NCBI RefSeq assembly: GCF_004010195.1
Contig: NC_057719.1
Coordinates: 12,501,969-12,565,968 of the forward strand
Direction of reading: 5' to 3'
Length of the DNA stretch: 64,000 nt
From: Chiloscyllium plagiosum
Lineage: Eukaryota
Below the pieces are notes generated by a model. That model saw only the letters and a program-made list of their open reading frames with translations, was not told the DNA's origin and ran no database searches. Shown piece by piece: positions 1-63,189 of the stretch; position 1 is the first letter of the stretch, and every line of letters starts with the position of its first letter. Both the position numbers and the translations under genes were made by a program.

Positions 1-352
1 CTAGGAACTCTCCAACCACAAGGGATGAACTCGGGTTTCACCAGTTTCCTCATTTCCCCTCCCCCCACCTTGTCTCAGTCAAATCCATCGAATTCAGCAC
101 CGCCTTCCTAACCTGCAATCTTCTTCCCGACCTCTCCGCCCCCACCCCAGTCTGACCTATCACCCTCACCTTGACCTCTTTCCACCTATCACATTTCCGG
201 CGCCCCTCCCCCAAGTCCCTCCTCCCTATCTTTTATCTTAGCCTGCTGGACCAACTTTCCTCATTCCTGAAGAAGGGCTAATGCCCGAAACGTCGATTCT
301 CCTGTTCCCTAGATGCTGCCTGACCTGCTACGCTTTTCCAGCAACACATTTC
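1..352 (+). mobile_element. Penelope-like element 3' end / pLTR with intact minimal hammerhead core at 267-294
   Basis: CTGAAGA-A-GGGC-TAAT-GCCC-GAAACGTC followed by the family tail GATGCTGCCTGACCTGCT; same family as 2846-3183, which carries GIY-YIG C-terminal coding sequence. Confidence 0.8.
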
Positions 353-359
353 CATCTCT

Positions 360-3300
360 ATCCTTCACAAAACCGTATTGATTATCCCTAATCAAATTAT
401 TCCTTTCCAGATGATTATAAATCCTCTCTCTTATTATCCTTTCCAACACTTTACCTACAACTGAAGCAAGGCTCACTGGTCTATAATTACTCTCCTTGAA
501 CAAGGAAACAAATTTGCTATCCTCCAGTTTTATCATTATTCCTATAGAAAATGACGATATAAAGATAAAAATCAAAAGCTTTGCAATCGCCTCCCTCGCT
601 TCCCTGAGAATCCCATTCGGCCCAGGGGACTTACCTGTTTTTACACTTTCCAGAATTGCTAACACCTCCTCCTTGTGAACCTCAATTCCATCCAGTCTAA
701 TAGCCTGTATCTCAGTATTCTCCTTGACAACATTGCTTTTTCTTGTGTGAACACTGACGAAAAATATTCATTTAGCGCTTCTCCTATCTCTTCGGATTCC
801 ACACACAACTTCCCACTACTGTCCTCGACAGGCCCTAATCTTACTGTAGTCATTCTTTCCTTTCTGACATACTTATAGAAAGCTTTAGTGTTTTCCTTGA
901 TCCTATCTGCCAAAGACTTCTCATGTTCCCTCCTGGCTCTTCTTATCTCTCTCTTAGCTCCTTCCTGGCTAGCTTGTGATTCTCAAGCACCCTAACTGAT
1001 CCTTCAAGACTCAACTTTATAGAAGCCTCCTTCCTCTTGACAAGAGATTCAACTTCTTTAGTAAACCCTCGCTTGACCACTTCCTCCTTGCCTGACATGT
1101 ACATACTTATCAAGGACATGCAGTAGCTGTTCCTTGAACGAGCTCCACATTTCAATTGTGCTCGTCCTCTGCAGTTTCCTTCCCCATCCTATGCATCCTA
1201 AATCTTGCTTATATACCTATCACTTTTTATTGCTAAAGTAAACGTAACCGAATTCTGGTCACTATCACCAAAGTGCTCACCCACCTCTAAATCTAACACC
1301 TGGCTTGGTCCATTACCCAGTACCAAATCCAATATAGCCTCACCTCTTGTTGGCCTGTCTACATACTGCGTCAGGAAATCCTCCTGCACACAATGGACAA
1401 AAACTGACCCATCTAAGGTACTTGAACTATAACATTTCCAGTCAATATTTGGAAAGTGAAAGTCCCCATAACAACTATCCTGTTACTTTTGCTCCTATCC
1501 TGAATCATCTTTGCTATCCTTTTCTCTATATCTCGAACATTTTGGAGACCTATAGAAAACTCCCAACAAGGTGACCTCTCCTTTCCTGTTTCTACTACCT
1601 TAGTAGACAAGTCCTCATCAAACGTCCTTTCTGCCATTGTAATACTGTCCTTGACTAGCAATGCCTCATCTTTTACCACCTTCCCTGATCTTACTGAAAC
1701 ATCTAAATCCCAGAACCTGCAACAACCATTCCTGACCCTGCTCTGTTTATGTAGTTGAAATGGCCATAACATTGAAGTCCCTGGTACAAACCCATGTTGC
1801 AAGTTCACCCATCTTTTTCTGGATACTCTTTGCACTGACGTAGACACACTTCAAATCACCTTCCTACCTGCTGGTACACACCTGCGACCTTGAAACCTTA
1901 TTCATGACCTCACTACTCTCAACCTCCTGTATGCTGCAGCTACAATTCAGGTTCCCATCCCCCTGCTGAATTAGTTTAAATCCTCCTGAATAACATTAGC
2001 AACAACCACCCCTTGCTGCCCCCCTCCCCCCCCCCCGGATATTGGGACCCCTCTGATTCAGGTGTATATTATCCAATTTGTAGAGGTCCCACCGACCCCA
2101 GAATGAGCCCCAATTATCCAGGTATCTGAATCTCTCCCTTCTGCACCATCCCTGTAACCCATGGGTTCAACTGCTCTCTCTCCCCCCATTCCTTGCCTCA
2201 CTAGTACAAGGCACAGGTAACAAACCAGCGATTACAACTCTGTTTGTTCTAGCTCTAAGCTTCCACCCTAGCTCCTTGAACTTCTGCCTTACATCTCCAT
2301 CTCTTTTCCTACCTATTCCTGACAAACGTATAGAAAGCTTTAGGGTTTTCCTTGATCCTACCTGTCAAAGACTTTCCATGTCCCCTCCTCACTCTTCTTA
2401 GCTCTCTTTAGGTCTTTCCTGGCCAACTTGTAACACTCAAGCGTCCTAACTGAGCCTTCATGTCTCATCTTTACATAAGCCTCCTTCTTCCTCTTGACAA
2501 GAGATTCAATCTCTTTAGTAAACCACGGTTCCCTTGCTCAACCACTTCCTCCCTGCCTGACGGGTATATACATATCAAGAACACGCAGTAGCTGTTCCTT
2601 GAATAAGCTCCACATTTCAATTGTGCCCATACCCTGTATCATAATCGCCTTTCTCCCAGCTATAACTCTTGCCCTGCGGTACATACCTATCCCTTTCCAT
2701 CGCTAAAGTAAACGTAACTGAATTGTGAGAGGCAGGTCACTATCACCAAAGTGCTCACCTACCTCCAAATCGAACACCTGGTCCAGTTCATTACCCAGTA
2801 CCAAATCCAATGTAGTCTTGCCGCTTGTTGGTCTATCTATATACTAAAGCAGAGTGCTTTAGGGAACATCTCCGGGACACTCGCACAAATCAACCACACC
2901 ACCCCGTGGCCTAACATTTCAACTCCCCCTCCCACTCTGCCGAGGACATGGAGGTCCTGGGCCTCCTTCACCGCCGCTCCCTCACCACCAGATGCCTGGA
3001 GGAAGAACGACCTATTGTACTCTATGCTACTTTCTCCCCACCCCCACCCTCCTCTAGCTTATCTCTCCACGCTTCAGACTCTCTGCCTTTATTCCTGAAG
3101 AAGGGCCTTTGCCTGAAACATCGATTTCACTGCTCCTTGGATGCTGCCTGAACTGCTGTGCTCTTCCAGCACCACTGATCCAGTATCTACATACTGTGTC
3201 AAGAAACCCTCCTGCACACATTGGACAAAAACTGATCCAAGGTACTTGAACTATAGCGTTTCCAGTCAATATTTGGCAAGTTAAAGCCCCCATAACAACT

Positions 3301-3500
3301 ACCCTGTTACTTTCACCCCAATCCTTTCCTTGACATCTCTGCAACTGTTTAGAATCCATAGAAAACTCCCTACATGGTGATCTCTCCTTTCCTGTTTCTA
3401 AGCTCAGCCCATACTACCTCAGTAGACCAGTCCTCATCAAATGTCCTTTTGGCCATCATAATACTGTCCTTGACTAACAATGCCACACCTCCCCCTTTTA
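360..3500 (-). mobile_element. Two adjacent decayed CR1 LINE fragments (~360-2315 and ~2316-3500)
   Basis: KSPGPNGI, NYRPVSLASVVGKVLE, FLTQYVDRPTRGEAILDLVLGN and IKENTKAFYKYV fragments; the endonuclease-linker region is present twice. Confidence 0.9.
2846..3183 (+). mobile_element. Penelope-like fragment (GIY-YIG C-terminus plus pLTR) inserted in a CR1
   Basis: REHLRDTRTNQP.../HFNSPSHSAEDMEVLGLLH peptide; degenerate hammerhead ~3094-3122; TSD tatctatatact (2834-2845) / tatctacatact (3184-3195). Confidence 0.8.
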
Positions 3501-3739
3501 GGGGGAGTTATCTAAATGTCTTTTAAATGTTGTAACTGTACACGCATGGAAATACATAAACATAAGAAATAGGAGGAGCAGACCATCTGACCTGCTGAGC
3601 CTGCTCTGCCATTCAATGACATCTTTTCGTGAATTCAGCTGCACTTACCGCTTGCTCACCATAACACTTAATTATTTTATTGTTCAAAAATCAATCTGAA
3701 TCATGAAGATCCAGTTGATGGGAAAATAATTGTCCAGTC

Positions 3740-4490
3740 ATACAACATGCAAACTTGTCCATGCTGACCAGGTGGCTTCAATTCAACTAGTCATATTTGT
3801 CTGCATCTGGGTCATATTCCTTGAAACATTTCCTATCCATGTACCTCTCCTAATGTCTTTTAACTGTTGTAATTGTTCGCACTTCTACCACTTCCTCTGA
3901 CAGCTCGTTCCATATATGCACCATCATTTGTGTGGAAAAGTTGCCTCTCAAGTCCTTTTTAAATCTTTTCCCTCTCTCCTTAAGCCTATTCCGTCTAGTT
4001 TTGGGCTCCCCTGCCCTGGGGAAAGTCAGTGGTTATTCACCTTATATATGTCCCTCTTGATTTTATAAATCTCTGTAAGGTCACCCAACAATTTTCTATG
4101 CTCCAGGGAAGAAAATCACAGTCTGTCAACCTCTACCTGTAACTCAAATCTTCCAGTCTTGGTAACATCCTTGTAAATCTTTTCGCACTCCTTCCAGTTT
4201 AATAACATCCTTCCTATCACAGGGCGACCAGAAGTATACACAATACTCCAAATATGGCCTTACCAATGTCTTGTACAGCTGTAACGTGATATCCAAACTC
4301 CTGTACTCACTGCTCTGACCAATGAAGGGAAGCACTTCAAACGCCGCCTTCACTATGCCTGTGATGCCCACTTTCAAGGAATTATGTACCTGCACCCGCA
4401 GGTCCCTCTGTTCAACAACACTCTCCATGGCCCTATCATTAACTGCTCCAGTTTGTCTCACCAAAATGCAACACCTCGCATATTGAATAA
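3740..4490 (-). mobile_element. CR1 LINE 3' fragment
   Basis: QLYKTLVRPYLEYCVYFWSP C-terminal CR1 motif. Confidence 0.85.
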
Positions 4491-4537
4491 GTTTTGTACA
4501 ATTGCAGTTGTCCAAATGTGGGGTAATGTTATCTTAC

Positions 4538-4639
4538 CTTCTTTTATTCCTCCAAACTTATAGTTGATTCCACTAAATTTCCATTCAGCTTTCAAAGACG
4601 GTGGTAAACATGAACTTGTAAATAGTTTGCTGTCCACAT
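4538..4639 (-). CDS. ENTPD5: ENTPD5 coding exon 9 (last in window; gene continues past position 1)
   Basis: cttgcttccag|ATGTGG...AAAGAAG|gtaaga; 102 nt; (D)VDSKLFTSSCLPPSLKAEWKFSGINYKFGGIKE(G), similar to the mammalian SACLPRWLEAEWIFGG segment. Confidence 0.95.
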
Positions 4640-4779
4640 CTGGAAGCAAGTATGGACAATGTTTGGAAGGATGGAATTGAGAAAACTAAAAATCCACAAT
4701 GTTTTAAAAAAATGCAAGCAGTCTACTGAAACTTTAAAAGTCCTGTCAAAGTAAAGGAAAACCTATTTTTTTCCAAACA

Positions 4780-5400
4780 CACTGACACAAAGATCAGTAC
4801 AGTGGTAAACAGTGAAGAGGACAGCTGTAAACTGCAGGAGGATATTAACAAAATAGTCAGGTGGACAATGCAGTGGTAAACAGAATTCATCCTGGAAAAA
4901 TGTGAGAGAATGCACTTGAGGAAGGCTACAAGGCAAAGGGTTACTATGAATGGAAGAATCTTCAAAAATGCTGAAGGTCAGAGGGATGGTCGTGAACATA
5001 TCCACAGTTCCCTGAATATAGCAGGACAAGTTGATAAGGTGATTAATAAGGTTCATGCAACATGTGTCTTTATGAGCTGAGGCACAGAATACAACACCAG
5101 GGAGTTTATCTTGGAACTGTACAAAATGCCGGTGAGGCCACAACTAGAGTACTGCAACAACTTGTTCTGATCATATTATGGGAAGAATGTGATTGCACTA
5201 GAGAGAATGCAGAGGAAGTTTACCAGGAGACTGCTTGGACTGGAGGGTCTGAGCTATGAGAAAAGTTTGGACAGGGGGGAGTTGTGTTCCTTGAATCGTG
5301 ACGATCGCAAGGGATGGAGGTGCATAAGATTTTGAGGAGCGTAGGTAGAATTGATAGCAAAGCACTTTTTCCATTAGTAGAGAGGTCAATAATGAATCAG
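4780..5400 (+). mobile_element. Old CR1 3' fragment
   Basis: Degenerate LQEDIN..., LELYK..VRPQLEY segments. Confidence 0.7.
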
Positions 5401-5802
5401 TGTGGACATAATGGACCGAATGTATTGTAGATATCTATGAACGAAGTGAGAATATCAAGGGATCATCTCAAAGTCACCCCTTTGACAATTTCTGATCATG
5501 GATTCTATCCCAATAATTAAATTATGAGGGAATTAATTAGATGAAGTACATAAAGCATTAAGTTCCACTGAGTACTGACAGTCTCATTCTCCAATTGTTA
5601 CACCTGGTGTTAATCTAGAAGTCAACATGAATGGACAGTGGCCCTAAAAGATTCTCCTCTTTGTGGGAGTTACTGCACACCTACAATAACTTTGTTTTCA
5701 AGTCAGTTTTACTGCGAGGATACATTTGTACGAAAGTAGACTGTGCCAACAAAAAAACAATCTCAGGCAAAGTCCAAGGTAGGAATTATATTGTAAAATA
5801 AA

Positions 5803-6690
5803 GTCATAGAGATGTATAGCATGGAAACTGACCCTTTGGTCCAACTCATCCATGCCGATCAGATATTCTAAATTAATCTTGTCCCATTTGCCAGCATTTT
5901 GCCCATATCCCTCTAAACCCTTCTTATTCATTTACCCATCCTGATGAGTTTTAAACGTTGTAATTGTACCAGCCTCCACCACTTCATCTGGTTGCTCATT
6001 CCATACACACATCACCCTCTGTCTGAAAAAGTTGCCTCTTAAATCCCTTTTACATCTTTTCCATCTCATCTTAAACCTGTACCTCTAGTTTTGGACTCCC
6101 CTATTCCCGGGAAAAGACCTTGTCTCTTTACCCTATCTATGCCCCTCATTATTTTATAAACCTCTATACAGGTCACCCCTCAGCCTCCGTTGCTCCAGGG
6201 AAGACATCCCCCGTCTATTCAGCCTGTCCCTATAGTTCAAACATCCTTGTAAATCTTTTCTGAACCCTTCCAAGTTTCAAAACATCCTTCCTACAGCAGT
6301 GAAACCAGAATTGCATGCAGTAGTCCAGTTGTGGCCTAACCAATGCCCTGTACAGCCACAACATGACCTCCCAACTCCCATACTCAATGCACTGACTAAG
6401 CAGACCAAACACCTTCTTCACTATCCTATCTACCTACGACTCCACTTTCAAGGAACTATGAATGTGCACACCAAGGTCTCTATGTTCAGCAACACTCCCC
6501 AGGACCTTCCTAATTTGCCTTTTCAAAATGCAGCACCTCACATTTATCTAAATTAAACTCCATCTGCCACTCTTCAGCCCATTGGCCGATCTGATCAAGA
6601 TCCCATTGTACTCTGAGGTGACCTTCTTCGCTGTCCACGATACCTCCAATTTCGGTGTAATCTGCAAATTTGCCAACCATATCTCGTATG
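5803..6690 (-). mobile_element. CR1 LINE 3' fragment
   Basis: KFADYTEIGG, WAEEWQMEFNLDKCEVLHF, LYRALVRPQLDYC; 3' tail CATCTCTATGAC. Confidence 0.9.
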
Positions 6691-7139
6691 TTCAAACTGG
6701 GAAAAATGAAACTTGTGTCATTTTTATAAATTTGAAATCAAGTAAAACAAAGTGCCACAGAGCCACCCTATCCTCAGAATTACTAAACACCCCCAGTGAC
6801 TCAGATGCAGGTTCACCACGTGATTCAGCTGTGGCCCACTGAAATAAGAGGTATTCAGGATTTATTTTCTAACCTGTGTGATCCATCCATGAGAGGCAAG
6901 GGAGGAGATAGCTGGTGTCCTGGCAGATGCATTAAATACTTCGCTGGCCACAGGCAAAGTGCCTGATGACAGGAGGATAGCTGATATAGTTCCTTTGTTC
7001 AAGAAGGGCAGCAGGGATAGACCAGGTAATTACAGTCCAGTTAGTCTGAGGTCAGTGGTAGAGAAATTATTGGAAAAATTCTGAAGTTCAGGATTAATCA
7101 ATACATGGAAGGCAGGGACTGATCAAGGATAGTCAGAAC

Positions 7140-10128
7140 TTGTGGTACACATTGGTAGCAATGAGATAGCTAGGAAAAGGGATGTGGACCTGAAAAGTGA
7201 ATATGGGGAGTTACGTTGGAATCTAAAAGGCAGGACAAGCACAGTAGTAATCTCAGGATTGGTACCAGTGCCACAGGCTTCAGAGATGTGGATCACTGAG
7301 ATACCTTCTGGGGAAAGTGGGACCTGTACAAGAAGGATTGGTTGTACCCGAGCTGGAGGGGCACCAATATCCTGTACGGGAGGTTTGCTTGAGCTCTTTG
7401 GGAGAGTTTAAACTAGTTTGGCGGGGGATGGGAACAGGAGCTATGGATCAGTAGCTGGTGAACAAGCAGATACACTGTGCAGAGAATCTGTGAGGAAGGA
7501 TAGACAGTTGATAGCAAAGCTGCAGTCAGTGTGATGGGCTGAAGTATATATATTTTAATGCAAGAAGTGTCAGAAACAAGGGTGATGAACTTAAAGCATG
7601 GATCAGTACTTGGAGCTATGATGTTGTAGCCACTGCGGAGACTTGGATATCACAGGGGCAAGAATAGTTGTTGGATATTCAGGGTTTAGATGTTTCAAAA
7701 GGAGTAGGGAGGGAGGTAAAAGAGGTGGTGATGTGGCATTGCTAATCAGGAATAGTACCACAGCTGCAGAAATGGAGGTCATTGAGGACAGTTTGCTTAC
7801 AGAGTCAGTATGGGTAGAAGTCAGAAACAGAAAAGGATTGGTTACTTTATTGGGAGTTTTCTATAGACCACTCCAATAGCAACAGAAACAGAGGAGCAGA
7901 TTGGGAGGCAGATTTTGGAAAGATGCATAAGTAACAGGGTTGTTGTCATAAGTCTTTTCAACTTCCCTAATATTGATTGGAACTTTCTTGATGCAAATAG
8001 TTTGGATGGAGCAAATTTTGTCAGGTGTGTCCAGGAAGGATTCCTGACTCAATATGTAGATAGGCTGACTAGGGGGGAGACCATATTGGATTTGGTGCTT
8101 TGCAATGAATCAAGTCAGATGTCAAATCTCTCTTGGGAGTGCATTTCAGTGATAGTGATCATAACTCCCTGAACTTCACTATAGGCATGGAGAGGGACAG
8201 GAGCAGACAGTATGGGAAAGTATTTAATGGGGGGAGGGGGAATTACCATGCTCTTAGGTAGGAACTGTGGAGCATAAATTGGAACAGATATTCTCAGGGA
8301 AGTGCACAACAGAAATGTGGAGGTTGTTCAGGGAGCACTTGCTACGAGTGCTGGATGTGTTGTCCCACTGAGGCAAGGAAGGGATGGTCGGGTGAAGGAA
8401 CCTCAGATGACAAGAGATGTGGTACATCTAGTCAAGAGGAAGAAGGAAGCTTACTTAAGGATGAGGAAGCAAGGATCAGTCAGGGCCCTGGATGGTTACA
8501 ACGTAGCCAGGAAGCAAGTGAAGAATGGACTTAGAAGATGTAGAAGGAAGCATAATAAAGCCTTGGTGGGTAGAATTAAGGAAAACGCCAAGGCATTCTA
8601 TGCTTATGTGAGGAACAAGAGGATGGCCAAAGTGAGGGTTGGGCCGATCAACAATAGTGGAGGGAACTTGTGCCTTGAGTCGGAGGAGTTGGGGTGGTCC
8701 TTAATGGATACTTTGCTTTAGTATTCACTAATGAGAGGGACCTTGTTGTTTGTGAGGACTGCGTGAAACAGGCTACTTTGCTAGAACAGGTTGATGTTAA
8801 GAAGGAGCATGTGCTGGAAATATTGAAAAACATGAGCATAGATAAGTCCCTGGGCCAGATGAGATATACCCAAGGTTACTATGGGAAGTGAGGGAAGAGA
8901 TTGTCGCGCCTTTGGCAATGATCTTTGCATCCTCACTGTCCACTAGAGTAGTACCAGATCATTGGAGGGTGGCAAATGTTATTCCTATGTTCTAGAAAGG
9001 GAATAGGGATAACCCTGGGAATTGCAAACCAGTCAGTCTTCTGTTGGTGGTGGGCAAGTTGTTGGAGAGGATTCTGAGACAGGATTTATGATTTTTTGGA
9101 AAAGCATACTTTGACTAGAGATAGTCAGCATGGCTTTGTGAGAGGCGGGTCATATCTCACGAGCCTTATTGAATTGTTTGAGGATGTGACAATACACACA
9201 TATGAAGGTGGAGCAATGGACGTGGTGTATATGGATTTTAGCAAGGCATTTGATAAGGTTCCCTATAGTAGGCCTATTCAGAAAGTAAGGAGGCATGGGA
9301 TACGGGGAAATTTGGCTTTCTGAATACAGAATTGGCTGGCCTATAGAAGACAGAGGGTGGTAGTAGATGGAAAGCATTCAGCCTAGACCATGGTGACCAG
9401 TGGTGTTCTTCATGGGTCTGTTCTGGGACCTCTGCTCTTTGTGATTTTTATAAATGACTTAGATGAGGAAGTGGGAGGTGGGTTAGTAAGTTTGCCCATG
9501 ACAGGAAGGTTGGAGTTGTGGATACTGTGGAGGACTATTGTAGACTGCAACAGGACACTGACAGGATGCAGAGCTGGGCTGATAGGTGACAGATGCAGTT
9601 CAACCTGGGAAAGTGAGAATGGTTCATTTTGGAAGGTTGAATCTGAATGCAGATTACAGGGTTTAAAGGCAAAATTCTTGGCAGTGTGGAGAAACAGAGG
9701 GATCTTGGTGTCCACATCCATAGATCCCTCAAAGTTGCCACCCAAGCTGATTGGGTTATTAAGGAGGTATATGGCGTGATGGCTTTCATTTGCAGGGGGA
9801 TTGAGTTTGAGTTTAAGAGCCGCGAGGTTATGATGCAGCTCTATAAAGCCCTGGTTAGATCACACTTGGAATACTGTGTTCTGTTCTGGTTGCCTGATTA
9901 TAGGAAGCATGTGGAAGCTTTAGAGAGGGTGCAGAGGAGATTTACCATGATGCTGCTTGGACTGGAGGGCATGTCTTATGAAGAAAGGTTGAGGGAACTA
10001 AGGCTTTTCTCATTGGAGCAAAGAACGATAAGAGGGGACTTGATAGAGGTGTACAAAAAGTTGAGAGGCATAGATAGATAGGATAGTCAGAGACTTTTTG
10101 CCAGGGCAGAATTTTAAGGTTTAGGTGA
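7140..10128 (+). mobile_element. Long CR1 LINE (ORF1 SGNH esterase end, APE endonuclease, RT), decayed
   Basis: VHIGSNEIARKR (ORF1), FNFPNIDW, YMDFSKAFDKVP, GSVLGPLLFVIFINDL, LYKALVRSHLEYC; many frameshifts. Confidence 0.93.
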
Positions 10129-10177
10129 GACAAAGAACAAAGAACAAAGAACAAAGAACAAAGAACAAAGAACAAAG
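10129..10177 (+). repeat. (AGAACAA)n 7-bp microsatellite, the CR1 3' tail
   Basis: About seven copies of ACAAAGA. Confidence 0.95.
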
Positions 10178-11021
10178 AAAATTTACAGCACAGGAACAGG
10201 CCCTTTGGCCCTCCAAGCCTGAGCCGATCCAAATCTACTGTCTAAACCTGTCGCCCAATTCCTAAGCATCTGTATCCCTCTGCTCCCCACCTACTCATGC
10301 ATCTGATCAGACGCATCTTAAATGAATCTACCGTGCCTGCCTCTACCACCTCTGCTGGCAACGCGTTCCAGGCACCCACCATCCTCTGTGTAAAGAACTT
10401 TCCGCGTGTATCCCCCTTAATCTTTTCACCTCTCACCTTGAAAGCGTGACCTCTCGTTATTTTCCCCTTACCCTGGGAAAAATCTTATCGCTATCTACCC
10501 TGTCTATACCCTTCATGATTTTGAAAACCTCAATCAGGTTCTCCTTCAATCTCATTTTTTCTAATGAGAACAAATTTAACCTACTCAACCTCTCTTCATA
10601 GCTAGCACCTTCCATACCAGACAACATCCTCTGCTCCCTCTCCAAAGCTTCCACATCCTTTTGGTAATATGCTACCAGAACTGAACACAGTATTCTAAAT
10701 GCGGCCGAACCAATGTCTTGTACAATTTTAACATGACCTGCTAGCTCTTATACTCAATACCCTGTCCAATGAAGGCAAGCATACCATATGCCTTCTTGAC
10801 CGCTCTATCCACCCATGCAGCAACCTTCAGGATACAATGGACCTGCACTCCCAGATCTCTCTGCTCATCAACTTTTCCCAAGGCTCTTCCGTTCACTGTA
10901 TAATTCGCTCTAGAATTAGTCTTGCCAAAATGCATCATCACACATTTGTCTGGATTGAACTCCATCTGCCACTTCTCTGCCCAACTCTCTTTATTCTCCT
11001 GTATTCTTTAACAGTCCCTTA

Positions 11022-11103
11022 TGCTTTCTGCTACTCCACCAATCTTTGTGTCATCTGCAAACTGCTTTCTGCTACTCCACCAATCTTTGTGTCATCTGCA
11101 AAC
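11022..11103 (+). repeat. Perfect 41-bp tandem duplication inside a CR1
   Basis: TGCTTTCTGCTACTCCACCAATCTTTGTGTCATCTGCAAAC twice. Confidence 0.93.
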
Positions 11104-12610: not shown

Positions 12611-13460
12611 ACTTCTTTACATAGAGCGGTGGGTGCGTGAAACGCACTGCCACAACTTGTAGTAGAGTCAGATACATTCGGGACATTTAAGTGAATCTTG
12701 GATAGCCACATAGATGGTAGTAAAATTAAGGGTATGTTGGTTAGTTTGATCTTAAGAGTAGGATAAAAGGTCAGCACAACATTGAGGGCCAAAGGGTCCT
12801 GTACTATACTGTACTGTTCTATGTTCTATGTTCAATATGGATTTGTTAGAAGTCAAATTTAATTAATCTTTTTTGAAAAAATTACTAAATTTAAATGTGG
12901 GTAGTGCAGTTGATATGGTTTACATGGACTTCAGTAAGGCTGATAAGATCCTACATGAATGGCTGTTCCTAAAGGTAATAGCCCATGGGATCCAAGGAAA
13001 GTTGTCAGACTGGATCCAAACATTGGCTTGCAAATAGGAGGAAAAAGGTGATGGTGGAGGTTTGGCTTTGTAATCGAAAGCCTATGACTAGCGGCGTACC
13101 ACAGGGTGTACAAAATTATGATAGGCATACACGGAGTAGATCGCGAGAATATCTTCTCCATGACAAATGTGTCTAAGACAAGGCATAAGTTTAAGGTGAG
13201 GAACAAGGCAATCTGATTATGATTCTTCTCACCCAGAAGGTAGCATATATATATATACAATGTGCTGCTGCCTGAGAGGATGGTGCAGGTAGGTACTTTC
13301 CCAGCATTTAAGAAAAATCTGGATGAGTACTTAAAATTCCAGGGCACAGCAGTCTATGGACTAAGTACAGATATTTGGGATTAGTGTAGTTTGGTGCTTA
13401 TTGCTTGACATTGACACGGTGAGCTGAAGGGTCAATTTCTATGCTGTATGATCCAATGGA
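12611..13460 (+). mobile_element. CR1 3' end with (TTCTATG) tail followed by a degenerate CR1 RT/3' fragment
   Basis: tgttctatgttctatgttc at ~12815-12833; VDMVYMDFS-like and TSGVPQG segments. Confidence 0.75.
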
Positions 13461-13593
13461 GTCGTAACACAATGAAAAGTCTTATAAATTCCAGTGACAA
13501 CTAGAGTAGGGCAGAACTCTAACACTTCCCTTTTTTTTGAACTACAAAACCAAGAAATATTTAGTCAGTAATTAAAAATGAGATTGCACTTGC

Positions 13594-52589: not shown

Positions 52590-52660
52590 CCCTCGCGGAG
52601 GACTCCAATCCACAATATCAGCCAAACCGGCACTGCCTGCCGGCCGGCCGCCTAGCGACC
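52590..52660 (-). other. ENTPD5: Probable non-coding first exon of ENTPD5 (5' end uncertain)
   Basis: Consensus donor GGG|gtaagt at 52589-52584 on the edge of the CpG-rich region, just downstream (minus strand) of GC boxes; TSS cannot be determined from sequence. Confidence 0.6.
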
Positions 52661-52806
52661 GCCCCGCCCCCATTACACCCCAGCTTCTTGGTCCGCCTCC
52701 TGCGGTCTACGTCACGCGCAATGGTGTGCGCGTTCCGACGTCATCCGTCATTCGCGTCGAACGTCACCGTCCCCCCCCACCCCGGCCCTTCCCTCCGAAA
52801 CACCCG

Positions 52807-52820
52807 GTTTCCATGGTGAC
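52807..52820. promoter_or_regulatory. RFX X-box
   Basis: GTTTCCATGGTGAC versus the consensus GTTNCCATGGNAAC (one mismatch); about 400 bp upstream of the ATG of a motile-cilia gene. Confidence 0.7.
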
Positions 52821-53213
52821 GGACGCTCCGCCGGCCAGATCCTCTCCCGCTGTCTCGAGCCATTATTTGAAAAATTTGAGTCAGAATTGGAGAAATTGTC
52901 CTTTGAAGATGTAGTGTGAGATAGATAGAGCCCTCCCTGCAGGAACTTGGGGCCACCTTCAGAAACTCAAATGTAGTCGGAAAAGACGCAGGGGGAGAAA
53001 CATCATTGAAGTTGCTCCGTCCTCCCGTGGGATGAAGGGATGAATTTGTGATCAGAATCTCGCCAGTAAGCCTCCCGTTGTATTCCAAAACGCTGTGCAG
53101 GCGTGACAAGCAAAATTAGCAACTCTCATTTCCCAGAGTGAGAGTTAGGAGACTCTCCCGCAGCAGAAACCTTCACACAGCACAGCAACTTCACAGCTTA
53201 CCGCACAGTAACC

Positions 53214-53236
53214 ATGCCGAAGAAAAAGGGAAAAGG
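53214..53236 (+). CDS. BBOF1: BBOF1 (CCDC176) first coding segment
   Basis: accATGCCGAAGAAAAAGGGAAAAGG|gtaaca; MPKKKGK(G); phase 2 matches the next exon; Lys-rich start like mammalian MPSKGKDKKKGK. Confidence 0.85.
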
Positions 53237-53510
53237 GTAACATGCCTGCGTATTTTCCTTTAAATGTTGACTAACTCGGTGCTGTTCAAACCTAATTTTA
53301 AAAGTTTCGCCGCCTCTACTCTGTTTTGCTACGTCTCCATTCAAACCATTGCCATGAAAAATCGTCAGACCATTTAGCAAAACAAAAATGGATGGGGAAG
53401 TATTACTAAACAAAAACACTTTGGGGGGAGGGATCTGTTTGTGGTGCACAGACTTCGAACGGCTCACCAAGGTAAATAGGGAGGAACATTTCCCACTGTA
53501 GAGGGGGTCA

Positions 53511-54408
53511 GGCAGCATCGGAGAAGCAGGAAAATCGACGTTTCGGGCAAAAGCCCTTCATCAGGAATAGAGGCAGAGTGCCTGCAGGGTGGAGAGATAA
53601 ATGAGAGGAGGGTAGGGGTGGGGAGAAAGTAGCATTATTGAGTGCAATAGGTGAATGGGGGTGGGGATGGAGGTGATAGGTCAGGGAGGAGGGTGGGGTA
53701 AGGTAGCAAAGAGTACAATGGGTGAATGGGGGTGGGGATGAAGGTGATAGGTCAGAGAGGAGAGTGGANNNNNNNNNNNNNNNNNNNNNNNNNNNNNNNN
53801 NNNNNNNNNNNNNNNNNNNNNNNNNNNNNNNNNNNNNNNNNNNNNNNNNNNNNNNNNNNNNNNNNNNNNNNNNNNNNNNNNNNNNNNNNNNNNNNNNNNN
53901 NNNNNNNNNNNNNNNNNNNNNNNNNNNNNNNNNNNNNNNNNNNNNNNNNNNNNNNNNNNNNNNNNNNNNNNNNNNNNNNNNNNNNNNNNNNNNNNNNNNN
54001 NNNNNNNNNNNNNNNNNNNNNNNNNNNNNNNNNNNNNNNNNNNNNNNNNNNNNNNNNNNNNNNNNNNNNNNNNNNNNNNNNNNNNNNNNNNNNNNNNNNN
54101 NNNNNNNNNNNNNNNNNNNNNNNNNNNNNNNNNNNNNNNNNNNNNNNNNNNNNNNNNNNNNNNNNNNNNNNNNNNNNNTTCATCCCCACCCCCATTCACC
54201 TATTGTACTCAATGCTACTTTCTCCCCACCCCCACGCTCCTCTCATTTATCTCTCCACCCGGCAGGCACTCTGCCTCTATTCCTGATGAAGGGCTTTTGC
54301 CCAAAACGTCGATTCTCCTGCTCCTCTGATGCTGCCTGACCTGCTGTGCTTTTCCAGCACCACTCTAATCTAGAATCTGGTTTCCAGCATCTGCAGCCCT
54401 TGTTTTTA
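53511..54408. mobile_element. Penelope-like element with inverted pLTRs spanning the assembly gap
   Basis: 53511-53768 is the reverse complement of 54179-~54340; intact hammerhead core at 53537-53564 (minus) and a GAAA->AAAA copy at 54283-54310 (plus); TSD cccactgtagagggg(g)tca at 53492-53510 and 54409-54426. Confidence 0.82.
53769..54178. other. Assembly gap (410 N)
   Basis: Run of N. Confidence 1.
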
Positions 54409-54640
54409 CCCACTGTAGAGGGGTCAATGGCTAAACAGGGGGCACAGTTTTTTAGGGAGGAACATTTCCCAATGTAGAGGGGTCAATGGCTAAACGGGGG
54501 CATAATTCTTTAGGGAGAAATATTTCCCTTCCATAGAGGGGTCAATGGTTAAACAGGAGGCGTAGTTTTTTAGGGAAAAACATTTCCCTTCCATGGGGGG
54601 GAGGGGGGGCAATGGCTAAACGGGGCCACAGTTATTTTTT
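54409..54640 (+). repeat. ~59-bp tandem repeat (about 4 units) derived from a CR1 3' segment
   Basis: Repeated TAGGGAGGAACATTTCCC...TAGAGGGGTCAATGGCTAAAC.GGGGC...TTTT; the first unit starts at ~53477, before the PLE insertion. Confidence 0.85.
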
Positions 54641-55583
54641 TAAGTGGGGAGCAAAGTCTTTTGACCGGATTTGAGGGAAAAAGAGGGTTGTGATATCTCG
54701 AACTCGCAATCAAAAAGGATCGTAGAGGCGGGAACCCTCAAGACATAAGAATTTTTTAGATGAACTCTTGAAACGCCATAGCATACAAGGGTTCAGGCTA
54801 AGTGCTGGGGAAAGGGGGGATTAGAAGATGTTCGATTAACTGCGCGGCGTACACGATGTGGGCGTGTTTCAGTGTTGTAAAATATGATTACTCACCACCC
54901 CCTTACCTTGGAAAATACTGAAATGGACATCTGTGAAGTAAGGAGGATATTGGTCAACATCTATAAAAGAAAACAGGTTGGCATTTGGAATATCATCATC
55001 AGAGTTATGTTAACGTTGTAATATTATTTGTATATATGAAATATTGAGCTTGATTTTGTATTGTTATTCTTAAGTAGGACCGTATACTGGCAACTAGCAT
55101 ATAATTTAAGGAAGGTCAAGATAGTTTGTTAGAAAATCAACAACTGTCGTTTGCTTTACCTGTACGGCCACATTATTATTATTACGCTGATCATATGTCA
55201 ATCAACAAACATCCTCTATTGGTTCACTACATCATAGTCATAAATACCATCGTAGGAACATATGCATAGGGCATAATTCAAATTGCGATGGCGCAGTTGG
55301 CTACATTTCGGTAACCTAATTGATTATATTTATATAATTTGTGTGTAATGAAGTGACATTTAATTCCTTTCTTTCTGGGAACGTATTTAATGCTCTCCTC
55401 TAGGCATGTCTCCCTATGCCATTTATGTTCGCCGGATGAAAGGCTCGAGAACTGATTAGTCCACCGCTCGTGACACTATGTCAAGCTTTATGTAGGGTAC
55501 TTAACCCTCCATAATGAGTTGTTTCCTTAAGGAAGTAGGGGAGAAATGAGATAATAATTGTGGATGGGGTTAATTTAGAAATG

Positions 55584-55711
55584 AGGAGAAAGTGAGGTCT
55601 GCAGATGCTGGAGATCAGAGCTGAAAATGTGTTGCTGGAAAAGCGCAGCAGGTCAGGCAGCATCCAGGGAACAGGAGAATCGACGTTTCGGGCATAAGCC
55701 CTTCTTCAGGC
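55584..55711 (-). mobile_element. Short Penelope-terminus insertion with intact hammerhead core (55682-55709)
   Basis: Minus strand CTGAAGA-A-GGGC-TTAT-GCCC-GAAACGTC; perfect TSD ttaatttagaaatg at 55570-55583 and 55712-55725. Confidence 0.85.
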
Positions 55712-56457
55712 TTAATTTAGAAATGGTTAATTTAGATTGATGTCCAAAGATAGTCTGTAGAATTTACCATCAATCTTTTCCTCCGTGGTAAAATATTTAA
55801 GCATATCGATACTTGTCATGGGTTTATGATTTACTAACCTGCCAAACTCTGAAAAATGTAAACTTGAATGGGGTACCAGTGACTGGACATTTACAGAATT
55901 GCAGCCTTGTATGAATACTGCAAGGCGAAACCTTGATAGAAAGAGAACTCAGTTACTTGTTAAATTATATAAAGCTCGATGATTTCAAATGGGGGTAACT
56001 TTATATCTTAATATATAAACAAACATATACCAATCTAGATTAAATGCTTGAAATGTACAGCAAACCAGGTGAATAAGCTGAATTTTTGTTCTGGGTTGAG
56101 GACCCCGACTTCGGGTGACCTTCGATTTTATTTATTTAATTATCCACCACCCATACAAAAATAAATCAAGCCTTAAAATACTGACAACTTACACTTGTCC
56201 TTGAAGAACCATCTCCAACACTGACATATCAGTGGTCCTATCTACAGAGGTTAGCACTGCCATTGTAGACTGGAAAAGAGCGTGGGAGCCTCAAGATGAT
56301 AGCATTTGTTTTCACAGAAGGCCATAGCTACAGACTGGCGTGGTTGTGGAAGGACAGTCAGTAAGCACAGCTGTGGCCCAAATGTTTATGCTGAAGGTGG
56401 GAGCTAGCGCAGCTGGAAGACTGCATCACCAAATAAAGAATACATTTTTTTATTAAG

Positions 56458-56707: not shown

Positions 56708-57549
56708 GTAATAATCTTGTTTAATTATGTATTTTAAAATGTTGTTGTTTAACATGTATTTAATCTTCTCCCCATTGGAAAGATTTAAACGTGGAGGACT
56801 GAGAAAGATATACATGTGTTTCGAAGGCGACAACATGTTCAATGACTTTGGGCAGAAAGGGATTTTGAAGAGGGGGTATCATTTTCAGCGATATGGGAGT
56901 TATATGTTGGTTCTTTGAGAAGTGTCCCCATTGATATCGACTAATAGGTATGTTAATGAACCCACAACCAGGATGACGCCAAATGATCAGCACCCACAGA
57001 GTGCAAGCAGCAACATGCTAGATTAAAAATATGTACCGAAGTTGTTCCGTTAATGAAAATTAGCAGCTGTCTGTTAAGTAAATTTATTGAGATTTTCAAG
57101 CAAATTGAACATACATTACTTACCTTCTAATGTGGGAATGGTGATTTTATGCTAAGGAACAGAACACAAGAATAGGACAATAAAAGAAAAGAATTGTGAA
57201 TGCTACAACCTCCTTCACTGGACTCAAATCTTTAACTCTGTTTTTTTCTCCAAAAATGCTGCAAGCATTCTGCCTGATGACAATAAATTTAATGGAGAGG
57301 GGAACAAACCCTGAAGAGCAAGAACCATTAACAATATCAAATAACATAGGAAATAAGGTGGTCAGGAGGGGAGTGGGAACATGGGTAGTGGGAGATCTCA
57401 TGGACTAGGTGAAGTGTAGAGAAGGCACGAGGGAGATAGAAAAGAAAGAGAGATTGTTTTTTATATATATCAGTTATGAGAAAGGATAATGGACCATTGG
57501 CCTTTCTCAAGGGAACCAGAAGTTATGCTTGCTTTGTAGAGAGTCTTGG

Positions 57550-57938
57550 TCACATAGCGTCATAGAGATGTACAGCATGGAAACAGACCCTTTGGTCCAA
57601 CCCGTCCATGCCAACCAGATATCCCAACCCAATCTATTCCCACCTGCCAGCACCCGGCCCATATCCCTCCAAACCCTTTCTATTCATATACCCATCCGAA
57701 TGCCTCTTAAATGTTGTAATTATACCAGCCTCCACGACATCCTCTGGTCCCTGTAGCTCAGATCTTCCAACCCTGGCAACATCCTTGTAAATCTTTTATG
57801 AATCCTTTCAAGTTTCACAACATCTTTCCGATAGGAAGGAGACCAGAATTGCACACAATATTCCAACAATGGTCTAACCAATGTCCTGTACTCAATACTC
57901 TGACCAATAAAGGAAAGCATATCAAACACCTTCTTCAC
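57550..57938 (-). mobile_element. CR1 3' fragment with internal deletions
   Basis: LVRPLLEYCVQFWSPSYRKDVVKLER; same tail again at 63900-64000. Confidence 0.88.
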
Positions 57939-58532
57939 ATGTGGAGAACTGCGTTCTGTGTGAACAGATTGACCTTGAAGAGGGGAGTCTATAGTTTCAT
58001 CCGACCGGGGTTTAGAGGATTAAATTTTGGGGACATATTACATAACTGTGGCTTGTATTTCCTTGATGGCTAGGATTACTGCTGTTTACAATGTTAAAAG
58101 GATTTAATGTAATCAAAACAAAAAACTTTCTTTTGTGGCTGACAAATCAAAAACCATGAGACATAATCCTAAAATTAGGGGGAAAGAAATTCAGGAACAA
58201 ATCAGGATACATCTTTTCACAAAAAGGCCAGGAGCATCCTGACAGTCTATCTCCTTCAATTTGCACATGGAGTTTTGAAAACTAAGAATGATAGATTATT
58301 GCAAGGTAAGGGTATCAAGGGATATGGGAAAAGATGGGTAAAAGAGGTTGAGATGTAGGTCGGTCATGATCAAATTGAATTGCAGAGTAGAGTCCAAGGA
58401 CTGACTGGGCTAAACCTATTCCTGTATTCTCAGTATTAGTTTTTACTTTGATTAAGTCAAGTGCTTTTGGTACAGAATGGCTTAAGTGTTCATGAATTTA
58501 CATGGCATATTCTGAGTCTTGGCATTTGAAAG

Positions 58533-58629
58533 GACGTGGAAAAAGTGAGGACTGCAGATGCTGGAGATCAGAGTCAAAAAGTGTGGTGCTGGAAAAGCAC
58601 AGCCGGTCAGCCTTTTCCATTACCACACT
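58533..58629 (-). mobile_element. Very short Penelope-terminus insertion with small inversion
   Basis: Family tail GTGAGGACTGCAGATGCTGGAGATCAGAG; TSD atttgaaag at 58524-58532 and 58630-58638. Confidence 0.7.
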
Positions 58630-58803: not shown

Positions 58804-59169
58804 GTAAGTGACTGAAGTTTTCCAGTTACAGTAGTATTTATGGCACTTGTCATCTTTGAAGGTTCAAGGGAAGCACTGGATTAAAGTATGTTGACTAGTA
58901 AAGCATTTTAGGAAGTATGTCAAGACCTGGGAGAGGGTCTTGACAATTTACTTGGATAAGAAATTTGAATAACATAGAGAAACTAGTGTAAGTGGTGTTT
59001 TGCTAAAAGAAGGTCGAGAACAAATTTGATAAGTTAAAAATCACACAGTGTGATTTTTAACTTTGTACACCCCAGTCCAACACCGGCATCTCCGAATCAT
59101 GACAAATTTGATAAAGGTATTCAAAATTATGAGAATGGTTTTGATGGGGTAAATAAGGAGACACTGGAC

Positions 59170-61056
59170 TGAAATGTGTGCCATACATCATAAGCAGCAA
59201 GTGATAGACAGAGCTAAGCAATTCCACAACCAACAGGTCAGAACTAAGCTCTGCAATCCTGCAACATTTTGTTGTGAATGGTAGTGGATAATTAAGCAAC
59301 TCACTGAAGGAGGAGGCTACACAAACATTCCCAGCTGCAATGATGGGGAGCCCAGCTCATCAGTGCAAAAGGTAAGGCAGTAGCATTCTTCAGCCTCCAG
59401 AGGTTCCCAGCATCACCATCTTCAGCCAATGTGATTTACTTCTCGATATTAGGTAATGGTTGAAGCCACTGTGTAGGCTGTAGGCCCTGACAACATTATG
59501 GCAATAGTATTGAAGACGTGCACCAGAACTTGCCACTCCCCAAGCCAAGCTGTTCCAGTGCAGTTACTACACTGGCATCTGCTTGATATTGTGGAAAATT
59601 GCCCAGTTATGTCTTTGTACACAAAAGCAGGACCCAGCAATTATCACCCCGTCAATCTACTCTCGACCATCTGTAATGGAAGGTGTCATCAACAGATTGA
59701 TCAAGCAGCACTTGCTAAGCAATAATCTGCTCACTGATGCTTAAAATCAATGAGGTAAAAACAATGACTGCAGATGCTGGAAACCAGATTCTGGATTAGT
59801 GGTGCTGGAAGAGTACAGCAGTTCAGGCAGCATCCAAGGAGCTTCGAAATCGACGTTTCGGGCAAAAGCCCTTCATCACTGATGCTTAGTTTGGGTTTCA
59901 TCAGGGTTACTTAGCTCCTGATCTCATTACAGCCTTGGTTCTAACATGGATAAAGGAACTGGATTCCAAAGGTAAAGTGAGAGTAACTGCTATTGACATC
60001 AAGTCTGCATTTTCAGAGTGTGGCTCTCATAAAGCTGGAGTCAATAGCAATCACAGGGAAAACTTTCCACTGATTGGAGTAATACCTGGTACAAAGAAGA
60101 TGGTTGTGATTATCAGAGGTCAGTCATCTCAGCTCCAGGACATCTTTGCTGGAGTTCGTCAGGGTAGGCTAAACCATCTTCAGCTGCTTCAATACTGTAA
60201 TTCCCTCCATCCTAAGGTCATAACTAGGAATGTCTGCTCATGACTGCACAATATTAAGCACCATTCATGATTCCTCCAATACCGCAGCAGTCAAAGTGCA
60301 GCAAGATCTGGAGGTCAATTTGAGCTGAAAAGTGGCAAAAAAACATTTGCTCCACATAAGTATCAGACAATGACCATCTCCAATAAGAGAGAATTTAACA
60401 TTTAACATTCAATGGAATTAATGAAGCCTCATTATCAACATTCTGGACCAGAAATTGAACTGAACCAGCCATATAAATACTGTGGCAACAAGAACAGGAC
60501 AAAGGCTAGGAATCATGCAGTGAGTAACCATCTTCATGACTTCTGTTAGGCTGTCCACAATCCACAAGGCACAAGTGAGGAGTGAAATGGATGAGTGCTC
60601 TATCAACACTGAAGTTTGACACCATCAGGAAAAATCAGCCTGCTTGACTGGCATCGCATCCACAAATATTCACTCCCTCCACCAACAACACCCATCAACA
60701 GTGTGTATAATCAAGAAAGTCCATTGTAGAAATTCAACAAAGCTCCTTCAACAACCATTTCCAAACTCTCTACCGCTAGCATCTAGAATGACAAGGGCAG
60801 CAAATGCATGAAAACACCACCACCTGCAAGTCTCCCTCCAAGCCACACTCCATCCTGACTTGGAAATATATCACTATTCATTCACTGTCGCTGGTCAAAA
60901 CCCTGGAACTCTCTTCCTAATAGCATTGTGGATCCACCTAAGCAAGTGGACTGCAACAAGAAGGCAGCTCATCACCACCTGCACAAAGGAAACTAAGGAT
61001 TGGCAATAAGTGCCAGCCGAGCTAGTGACACCCACAGCTATGAATGAATAAACAAA
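59170..61056 (+). mobile_element. L2-like LINE (RT to 3' end), decayed
   Basis: NYHPVNLLS, VTAIDIKSAF, AGVRQG; tail GGCAATAAGTGC...ATGAATGAATAAA. Confidence 0.82.
59744..59875 (-). mobile_element. Short Penelope-terminus insertion within an L2-like LINE
   Basis: Perfect TSD tcactgatgctta at 59731-59743 and 59876-59888; truncated inside the CTGATGA box. Confidence 0.83.
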
Positions 61057-63189
61057 AAAAGATTTAGCAATAATCAGTTCTACGTGGTGGCGGTGGAAAT
61101 TGTTTTCATTGTTGAAATGTATGTCATGACCAGAAGGCATGAAGAGAAATCTGAAAGAAAACTATATTTTCTTCTTTAAATTCTGTTTGTGTTAAAAATA
61201 CAAACAAGCTTGCTGAATTTATAAAATGGCCATACCTGATCATATACTTGCATTTCCAGGAGCTTTTGCACTCTTTGCATTGTGTAAACATTTCAGCTAA
61301 AGCTGACACAAAGTACTTGAAAACTTGCTTCCATCCAGCTCTGGGCAAAAGAAAACCTCAATGCTTTATATTAAAATAGGCACTATTGCTCTTACACTTA
61401 TCTTGTCACCTCACAATGGATACTCACATGGGGGAAAGTAATGCTATAGTGTTAGCACAACAATCTTCCAAATAGCCCATTAAGATGGACTTTCACCATC
61501 TGAAATGTCTGTCCTTGTCACATGAAGGAAATTGCTTAAGTATGCAAATCTGGGAATCTAAACCAGTTGCTATCTTAACATTACAGGAGCACCAGCTCTA
61601 GATCTTACCAGTTAAGAGGCATGCTGTCCATCTCTTTTCTCTCTCAAAAGTACATCTCCAGAAAAAATCTTGGACTTTGTCTTCCAATCTGGACTAATTA
61701 TCTGAGTATAAGAAATATTGCTGTGCCTTTTGACTGCATCCCAACTTCCAGGAAAATAATTGGTATAGGATTAACCAATTCATAGATTCTCAATTGGACA
61801 TTGACTCACTGAACTCTAAGTCACATACATTAATACCAGCATTCTTGACTATTGGGGAAAAAAAATCATAAGTTGTAACTTGCCTTATAGGTCTGCGCAT
61901 GTGTGCATGTATACATGTGTGTCTATGTGTGAGAGAGAGCGAAAGAGTGAGAATGAAGTAGCAAAGAATCAGCCCTACATTTTGAAAGCTTATTAATAAA
62001 CCCTACCTTTTATTTAATTTTAAAAGATATTTCTATAGGTTTAATAAAAAGACAGGGTTTGGGAAATACTTTTAGCCTCAGTAAGAGTTAGGCTTAAAGA
62101 GGGAAAGGAGAAAAGGGTTTGAGGAGAAAAGCAATCCTAATTTAAATTCACCCCATTCTCTCTTTGCCCATGACATGTTGGATATAAAAGAAAGGACAGG
62201 AAGCAGTGCAAAATGGTTGCTCCTCAATCTAGAGGATGGTAGAGAGTTCACCCAAGGGTCAATACAAGAACCACTGCTTTTTAAATATATATCGATGATT
62301 TGGAATAGAGTAAAATTTCAATATTTCAATTTCAAGATTCTTGAGGGACTTACAGTAGGTATCGAGAGGTTGTTTCAGAGGACATTATCTCAGAATAAGG
62401 GGCTGCCCAGTTAGGGGAGAGAGAGAGAGAGAAATAAGGAATTTCTTCTCTCAGAGAGTAGTGAATCTTTGCAACTTTTTATTGTAGAGGGCCATTAAGG
62501 GTGACATAGCTAGATTTTTAATCAGTAAGGGAATTGAGGGTTATGCGGAAAAGGCAAGAAAGTGAAGTTGAGATTATCAGATGCATGATCTCATTGAATA
62601 GCTCGATGGTCTGAATAGCAAATTTATGCTCTTGCGTCTTATGCTCTTATCACCTGATCAAATCAAAAATAGATTCAAGGTTTTGGGCAAGGTGTGTAGA
62701 GAGGCACTCCAGGGAAGAATGGTTCTTACCTCGTAGACAGTTAATTGTAATGACCTGGAAATTTTTCTCTGAGCACAGTGAAAACAGAGATAATCCAGTG
62801 ATTTCAGAAAGAAATTAGTTGGGCACTTGAGTGAATTAATTTTAAAAATAAGTGAGGCTGGATCATAGGTAACGGACTAACAAAGGGTGACAGGATCAAA
62901 ACGTGTGGTGCTGGAAAAGCACAGCAGGTCGGGCAACATCCAAGGAGCAGGAGAGTCAACATTTTGGGCATAGGCCTTTCATTAGCAATGTTGACATAGA
63001 TTTGATGGGCCAAATTACCTTCTTTGTGCTGTAATTTCTTCAGTACTTCATGTGGTATCCAAATGTTTCAGGGAAATACAATTGGATCCATAATTATTAG
63101 CAAATAACCTACATTTATAAGGAGTGCAATGCTCTATCCAAGTAGTCACTGTTAGCTGAACTTGCTCTCACACCTTCATCTTCCTATAG

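Follow-up and report, generated by a model that had tools for sequence, protein, structure and literature searches.

Short repeats that carry a minimal hammerhead ribozyme (HHR) are dispersed through a 64,000-nucleotide stretch of Chiloscyllium plagiosum DNA (contig NC_057719.1, positions 12,501,969 to 12,565,968; this whole stretch is called the window). We conclude, with a probability of about 0.9, that these repeats are 5′-truncated and neutrally decaying insertion by-products of a high-copy autonomous Penelope-like element (PLE). The 5′ ends of the short copies, or stubs, lie a little ahead of the ribozyme rather than at the cut site predicted for it, and the templates that were copied were uncut at this site. 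We propose, with a probability of about 0.6, that the stubs of ~95-135 nt are run-off cDNAs of uncut RNA whose 5′ end would lie 4-10 nt before the hammerhead core. The 5′ edge at the hammerhead likely marks the place where the element RNA begins.

The ends of the copies (family A) were surveyed by anchoring on the tail in 837 kb of DNA that had been selected without regard to the element (the window, 70 arbitrary stretches and 100 kb of neighbouring DNA). Of 126 candidates, we discarded 18 with less than 78% identity; another 10 ran into N or an edge and were censored, leaving 98. Positions are given relative to C3 of the core, the predicted cut lying before +28. Sixty of the 98 5′ ends fell at -10 to +9, with a mode at -4 and a spread over ~20 nt. 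The hazard of ending was 0.03-0.05 per nt in this interval versus 0.001-0.005 in eight of nine other bins, and it was 0.010 at -20 to -11. Among the 60 ends of the pile-up, 33 adjoin an inverted arm, nine have a target-site duplication (TSD), and 18 have neither (two of these look like library artefacts). The 3′ ends were bimodal, with clusters at about +88-95 (35 of 108) and +120-131 (36 of 108). Furthermore, 14 of 18 uncensored insertions bearing the leader of the open reading frame (ORF) start at -11 to +4; this set came from 30 loci after removal of three overlapping duplicates and nine censored cases, and three of its members share an upstream piece.

Three further hammerhead-bearing PLE families (B, C and D), all present in the window, were found by a descriptor scan. 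Each of them has some copies with an endonuclease (EN) fragment upstream, and family D looks Poseidon-like and has an AC-rich tail. The end samples of these families were drawn from all fetched loci and not only from the unbiased ones. In family C, 37 of 53 5′ ends lie at -17 to +8, and CTATAAAT is found near -41 in nine of 12 long copies; for family B, 20 of 33 ends lie at -10 to +6, as read with a weak library of three sequences only. TATA-like boxes are located ~30 nt before the pile-up in both families. Two other origins of the edge were considered and rejected: EN cutting at ATT, because families B and C show the edge without ATT, and a splice acceptor near -22, because the stubs have no common upstream exon. 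A polypyrimidine-AG is present near -22 in the family-A pseudo-long terminal repeats (pLTRs), and no splice joint was seen in RNA run X19 (single-cell polyA). This raw run gave 1,423 reads in both orientations, of which 96-98% continue into unlike sequence. It showed no pile of starts or ends; its reads look like host transcripts carrying copies, and the run is unsuited to cut ends. Run X20 gave zero element reads.

Genome searches with pieces of the reverse transcriptase (RT) and of the EN produced 49,780 and 18,092 first-look candidates. In long copies the same pLTR, hammerhead and tail are linked to coding sequence for the RT, a C-x4-C-x2-C linker and a CCHH-containing GIY-YIG domain. DKG and DIQSLYTSIP/YIDD-type motifs were found upstream of this pLTR in loci L051, L069, L077 and L021, and P0002 has the C-x4-C-x2-C linker between RT and EN followed by a C-terminal GIY-YIG with CCHH. 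In L051 and L142 the tail continues into the N-terminus of the ORF, closing a unit of ~3.7 kb (gap-estimated) with the order HHR, tail, ORF (DKG, RT, CX4CxxC linker, GIY-YIG with CCHH), pLTR, HHR and tail. The Pfam match to RVT_1 had an E value of 1e-5, below the gathering cut-off, and that to GIY-YIG one of 3e-4, just below the cut-off. No intact ORF was found among 40 loci chosen for RT or EN matches, the long copies being frameshifted, truncated or N-gapped, and PDB sequence searches with the RT-bearing and with the EN-bearing ORF gave 0 matches each. A PLE-type RT linked to the terminus, a C-terminal GIY-YIG with CCHH, a pLTR or partial tandem, an inverted 5′-truncated partner, an optional tail and a variable TSD are all found. 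By the definitions in the part of PMC8557442 covered here, these motifs assign the element to the autonomous EN-containing (EN+) PLEs of putative Neptune or Nematis type. An ORF start inside the family-A hammerhead, as in PAc, the Poseidon element of the green anole, was rejected because the frames, compared by eye, are not common to the subfamilies.

The short copies share further features with PLE insertions. Among 281 matches we counted 40 head-to-head pairs and 0 tail-to-tail pairs. The two arms of a pair mostly belong to one subfamily; among the 40 pairs, L143 is clearly discordant and L109 possibly so. TSDs of 8-21 bp, mostly 12-15, flank 14 of 18 pairs and 12 of 61 single copies (null 2/150), and the pairs and TSDs match the inverted-pLTR, tail and TSD anatomy described in the available part of PMC3846280. 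The earlier note on this DNA took the ribozyme-bearing terminus to spread by itself. The short copies are ragged at the 5′ side, match RT/EN-bearing long copies, carry no upstream promoter-like box and are often paired head to head; as this is the published anatomy of PLE insertions, such independent spread is not supported.

Two peculiar arrangements were observed among the fetched loci. The fold-back pair at L036:500-680 has arms without a single difference over 94 nt, a stretch that takes in flanking sequence and a private deletion; this suggests an inverted duplication, an artefact of the assembly or gene conversion at a later time. Internally deleted family-A derivatives occur in L161/L166, L163/L167/L168, L169, L172, L173, L179, L180 and L181 (for example L163:1217-2170, element orientation). 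In these derivatives the HHR, the tail and the leader of the ORF are fused to the pLTR either at -29 or at -33, the latter junction being common to at least seven loci. Their units measure 274-281 bp and are arranged head to tail, in retrozyme-like tandems that place hammerheads next to each other.

The ribozyme has the core CUGANGA/GAAA/NUH with stems I and II and a palindromic stem III. The repeat is a PLE terminus with a minimal type I hammerhead and a weak stem I, as the earlier note had stated. With a structural descriptor of the minimal HHR, the window had four matches and 20 Markov shuffles a mean of 0; 1.27 Mb of fetched DNA had 119 matches, and one shuffled set had one. The exact motif occurs 86,254 times in the 3.56-Gb genome and its reversed pattern 0 times. 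These counts exclude a chance origin of the motif. An Rfam scan matched no hammerhead family, even at E<5. Covariation was analyzed in 14 chosen natural rows from about six lineages, picked from matches that required pairing of stem II and not of stem I. The core letters are invariant, 90% of the helix cells pair (22-42% in slid controls), and 41 cells show two-sided changes versus 11.9 ± 2.7 in shuffles (0/500 reach it). Stem I pairs at 82% though this was not required, with two-sided changes in three of its four pairs, and in family C the palindrome of stem III is AGCU instead of ACGU. Stem I of most family-A subfamilies consists of 4 bp and contains a U-U mismatch; in one subfamily its four pairs are all Watson-Crick.

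Folding of the monomer or the homodimer recovers stem II only, and the active hammerhead fold is not predicted to be the minimum-energy structure, nor to be stable. PLE hammerhead dimers were reportedly studied by Lunse et al. in 2017. The weak predicted fold agrees with the low or protein-dependent activity reported in PMC11167929 and in the covered part of PMC4209133. In the stub at 55584-55711 and in other family-A tails, a helix is predicted between a strand at about +45-51 and one at about +105-115 inside the optional tail; from its position, the 3′ strand of this predicted helix is bracketed by the two 3′-end clusters. The fold z-scores of these tails are weak (+0.8 to -2.2).

Excess conservation of the core, which had been set beforehand as a test, was looked for among 120 dispersed copies and not found: the core is no better kept than the tail, and core, stem II and ACGT are retained in 38 of the 89 copies reaching C3. 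Such conservation is visible between families only. The test is unsuited to dispersed copies because these are dead and decay neutrally, the three CpGs of the core fastest (12-18% transitions per base). We infer that selection keeps the hammerhead in the master elements and not in the stubs, and that the intronic stubs are passengers.

The proposed run-off origin of the stubs would involve the following steps. The upstream pLTR would contribute a TATA-like box, and transcription would start ~30 nt after it, at the 5′ edge of the hammerhead. By analogy with PAc, the ribonucleoprotein would nick both strands ~9-17 nt apart and the RT would prime internally at about +90 or +125, positions that match the two 3′-end clusters. 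Priming in the first repeat would run off the RNA end after 95-135 nt and leave a stub, priming in the last repeat would give the longer truncated copies, and the use of both nicked strands would yield the head-to-head pairs. The hammerhead would cleave only as a dimer or with the help of protein.

Several observations weigh against a transcription start at the hammerhead edge. Family A has only a non-canonical TTATCT near -36, and in family D only six of 27 5′ ends lie at -17 to +9 despite a TATA-like box near -50. About a quarter of all copies extend past the hammerhead edge, four of 18 ORF-bearing insertions reach upstream of -20, and 49 of the 61 single copies had no TSD in a narrow search. 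No RNA 5′ end was observed in the one usable RNA run, X19. The Penelope element of D. virilis, according to the part of PMC2377424 covered, starts in the pLTR, but its promoter is internal and TATA-less, so that some promoter activity of the stubs is conceivable. The placement in Neptune, probable in view of the vertebrate host, is based on motifs, and the linker is common to Nematis. Moreover, the ends would be distributed in the same way if the RT stopped strongly at the hammerhead edge. The main rival accordingly keeps the same element and the same by-product status and takes the pile-up as the point of RT arrest or fold-back: RT primed in the 3′ repeat would stall or snap back on leaving the hammerhead, owing to structure or protein, with no start there. 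The inverted arms next to more than half of the pile-up ends, the concordant subfamilies of most pairs, the spread of the ends, the lack of a TATA-linked pile-up in family D and the self-priming proposed in the available part of PMC3846280 all fit this explanation. Against it stand the TATA-like boxes of families C and B and the ORF-bearing insertions that seldom extend upstream, and at least one pair has discordant arms, which pure snap-back does not give. We regard it as possible but somewhat unlikely.

The stubs might also be an independent SINE-like (short interspersed element-like) non-autonomous family with its own internal promoter, mobilised in trans by the PLE protein, which comes closest to the earlier note. 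We consider this improbable. The stubs do far outnumber the ORF 5′ ends (a depth of ~200 versus 2-10 in RNA run X19, several-fold in X15), the internally deleted derivatives have a common junction at many loci, and an internal promoter exists in the D. virilis element; yet no fixed 5′ end is found, the stubs share subfamily variants with the long copies (one at 100%) and have no upstream box, and the RNA reads hold no element-specific strand or start signal. That ribozyme cleavage makes the copied RNA end, the stubs being cDNAs of self-cleaved fragments, has very little to recommend it. Four of the 98 5′ ends lie two to three bases downstream of the predicted cut, at +30/+31, but 0 of 98 lie at +22 to +29, most copies hold the whole ribozyme upstream of the cut, and the 3′ ends lie 60-100 nt past it. 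The end distribution thus largely refutes cleavage as the source of the copied ends. We give equally little credence to the view that the motif is not a hammerhead or that the repeat derives from a non-PLE element: the missing Rfam match and the unfavourable predicted fold of monomer and dimer would suit it, while the invariant core letters, the compensatory changes in all three helices across families and the direct linkage to RT and GIY-YIG contradict it.

Going beyond the run-off origin of the stubs, we advance a broader proposal tentatively, considering it rather doubtful as a whole. In the Neptune-type PLEs of sharks, the mRNA would begin with the hammerhead as its first 35 nt, a TATA-like box would lie ~30 nt upstream, the hundreds of thousands of stubs would be strong-stop-like cDNA fossils of uncut RNA, and the ribozyme would act as a conditional switch. 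If this is true, the ribozyme, triggered by a dimer or by protein, would remove the capped 5′ end and separate RNA fates instead of making template ends, and head-to-head pairs with arms of different subfamilies would represent two RNAs per insertion complex. The end distribution predicts an exact transcription start.

Judged from 70 arbitrarily placed 10-kb stretches (676,083 non-N bases), the window is typical of its genome. These stretches contained 121 matches, 85 of them at 50 bits or more, or one per 5.6-8 kb, in line with the SINE-like density of about one per 5 kb described before. Extrapolation gives about 0.4-0.6 million copies in the genome, the weaker matches including family B. 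About two thirds of the copies are bare HHR-plus-tail stubs. Two copies are 99.5% identical over about 410 nt, and activity is therefore recent. The repeat is ordinary for PLEs but extreme in number. Since one family alone gives so many exact motifs, which Rfam misses, shark-type genomes are likely among the richest in minimal HHRs.

A profile built from nine window copies (acceptance at E<1e-4 over 64 kb) gave 15 matches in the window, one per 4.3 kb. All 13 sites listed by the earlier note were recovered, in profile coordinates at 263+, 3091+, 18292-, 22877-, 34811-/34814+, 42435-/42434+, 53568-, 54279+, 55712-, 59881- and 62989-, and two were added (31449+ and 58610-). A complete motif ending in ACGTC is present in just three of the 15 copies (267+, 53564-, 55709-). 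A fourth copy, 34809-, has ACATC at this end; the others are 5′-truncated into the core or CpG-decayed. TSDs, said to be clean and of 9-19 bp, were found at seven of the 12 family-A/B/C units tested and measure 9-15 bp, with none up to 19 bp; the same test found no TSD at 18292, 22877, 62989, 31449 or the family-C copy 38292. Over 90 nt, the stub at 55584-55711 matches the RT/EN-bearing copy L069 at 100% identity. An RT-coding PLE fragment lies just upstream of the window, beyond a gap of 1013 N that precedes the copy at 1-354. The features are listed in the table.

Table. PLE-derived features of the window (positions are those of the window).
Feature	Position	Strand	Details
3′ end of long family-A PLE copy	1-354	+	95.8% identity to RT/EN-bearing L069; GIY-YIG C-terminal codons 1-60, then pLTR, intact minimal HHR 267-294 and short tail; predicted cut after 294
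Internally deleted family-A copy	2846-3183	+	EN fragment 2848-3009 joined to pLTR; CpG-decayed HHR 3095-3122; 12-bp TSD (one mismatch) 2834-2845 / 3184-3195
Old decayed HHR-plus-tail stub	18165-18294	-	profile match; TSD not found
Stub truncated at +5 (without CUGA)	22796-22903	-	no TSD passed the test; short inverted tail piece at 5′ side; inserted in gypsy-like element
Decayed stub of older family B	31446-31540	+	absent from earlier note
Head-to-head fold-back pair 34811-/34814+	34757-34936		9-bp TSD 34750-34758 / 34937-34945
Family C minimal HHR with upstream pLTR	38196-38294	-	intact core, sense to ENTPD5-like gene; stem II GGAGC/GCUCC, stem III palindrome AGCU, cut triplet CUA; absent from earlier note
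Family D (Poseidon-like) HHR plus tail, decayed	38780-38879	-	absent from earlier note
Head-to-head fold-back pair 42435-/42434+	42357-42560		9-bp TSD 42347-42355 / 42561-42569; insertion site is a family-D EN fragment
Two decayed family-D HHR-plus-tail copies	43150-43538	+	43150-43242 and 43482-43538
Long head-to-head unit across assembly gap (N 53769-54178)	53506-54411		15-bp TSD 53492-53506 / 54409-54423; intact HHR 53564-53537 (-), G12>A HHR 54283-54310 (+), full tail; in intron 1 of BBOF1-like gene
Young stub starting at -1	55584-55711	-	14-bp TSD 55570-55583 / 55712-55725; intact core 55709-55682; stem I 5′ strand lost; long tail
Tail-only stub without hammerhead	58538-58628	-	9-bp TSD; absent from earlier note
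Family C tail-only fold-back	59033-59101		13-bp TSD 59020-59032 / 59102-59114, assigned by eye
Stub starting at +1 (C3 lost)	59744-59879	-	13-bp TSD 59731-59743 / 59876-59888; tail extends into ORF leader
Decayed stub starting at -4	62897-62990	-	TSD not found

The copies lie in introns of both host genes, in agreement with the earlier note. The minus-strand gene encodes an NTPDase (GDA1_CD39) with motif-bearing exons from 38487 to beyond the window start, and the plus-strand gene a DUF4515 protein whose first exon, 52908-53235, joins 56457 in one contig; we take them to be ENTPD5 and BBOF1. The ENTPD5-like and BBOF1-like genes stand head to head at a GC-rich shared promoter region (52590-53235), and the PLE unit 53506-54411 is located ~270 bp into intron 1 of the plus-strand gene, adjoined by a short tandem repeat (~54409-54620). 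The three intact family-A cores are all antisense to the host gene and the intact family-C core is sense, numbers from which no conclusion on strand bias is drawn. Elsewhere in the window, translations read by eye indicate decayed pol fragments of a gypsy-like LTR (long terminal repeat) retrotransposon at 20755-24650 (minus strand), with the 22877 stub inside. Many decayed CR1/L2-like LINE (long interspersed element) fragments lie on both strands at 360-17900, 39000-42300, 47300-47900 and 57500-58000.

Earlier publications already describe minimal hammerheads in PLE pLTRs as well as dispersed single motifs, tails and inverted copies. In the literature, supplements and most subscription papers being outside the scope, no description was found of this shark family or of the 5′-end pile-up. 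The parts of PMC4209133 covered name no shark, and the part of the preprint bioRxiv 10.64898/2026.07.22.740005 covered samples one chondrichthyan. The pile-up is not described in the main text on PAc (PMC11167929). The copies offer a natural dataset for questions that these papers call open, namely the role of the PLE hammerhead and the origin of pLTRs, tails and inverted copies.

Compared with the EN+ PLEs of the Neptune (or Nematis) clade, as presented in the part of PMC8557442 (Craig et al. 2021) covered, the shark element is alike in its RT with C-terminal GIY-YIG, CCHH and CX2-5CxxC linker, and in the heavy 5′ truncation, the adjacent inverted truncated copy, the optional tail of 30-40 bp and the HHR in the pLTR. 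It differs in the predominance of bare stubs and in that microsatellite targeting is not evident at the window TSDs; the most abundant elements named there have copy numbers in the tens of thousands versus the hundreds of thousands extrapolated here. The ribozyme resembles the minimal type I PLE hammerheads of metazoans in PMC4209133 (Cervera and De la Pena 2014; in the sections covered) in the intact core, the extra base between 9 and 10.1, G10.1-C11.1, the palindromic 15.2-16.2 without loop 3, and the mostly single dispersed motifs with opposite-strand pairs nearby. In contrast, stem II has 4 bp here versus 7-8 bp in Schistosoma, the mismatched stem I of most family-A subfamilies is unlike those hammerheads, and the exact motifs compare with about 4,000 in coelacanth and 9,000 in Xenopus in the same sections.

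In PAc (Frangieh et al. 2024, PMC11167929), the tail arises from internal starts of the RT, nicks are made in both strands, the main template is RNA that has not been cut, and the HHR needs protein. The shark element is alike in the two 3′ ends that define the tail, the uncut template and an HHR that does not fold stably alone; however, PAc is devoid of the linker zinc finger and its ORF runs from stem II, whereas the first in-frame ATG of family A lies ~170 nt past the core. Family D of the window looks closer to PAc than family A does. Finally, the repeats are related to the non-LTR retrozymes (in the available parts of PMC7229834 and of the above preprint) as non-coding, HHR-bearing PLE derivatives. 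The copies of the window fall outside the retrozyme definition because they are single or head-to-head and never form head-to-tail tandems, whereas the retrozyme-like 274-281-bp tandem units of family A exist elsewhere in the genome.

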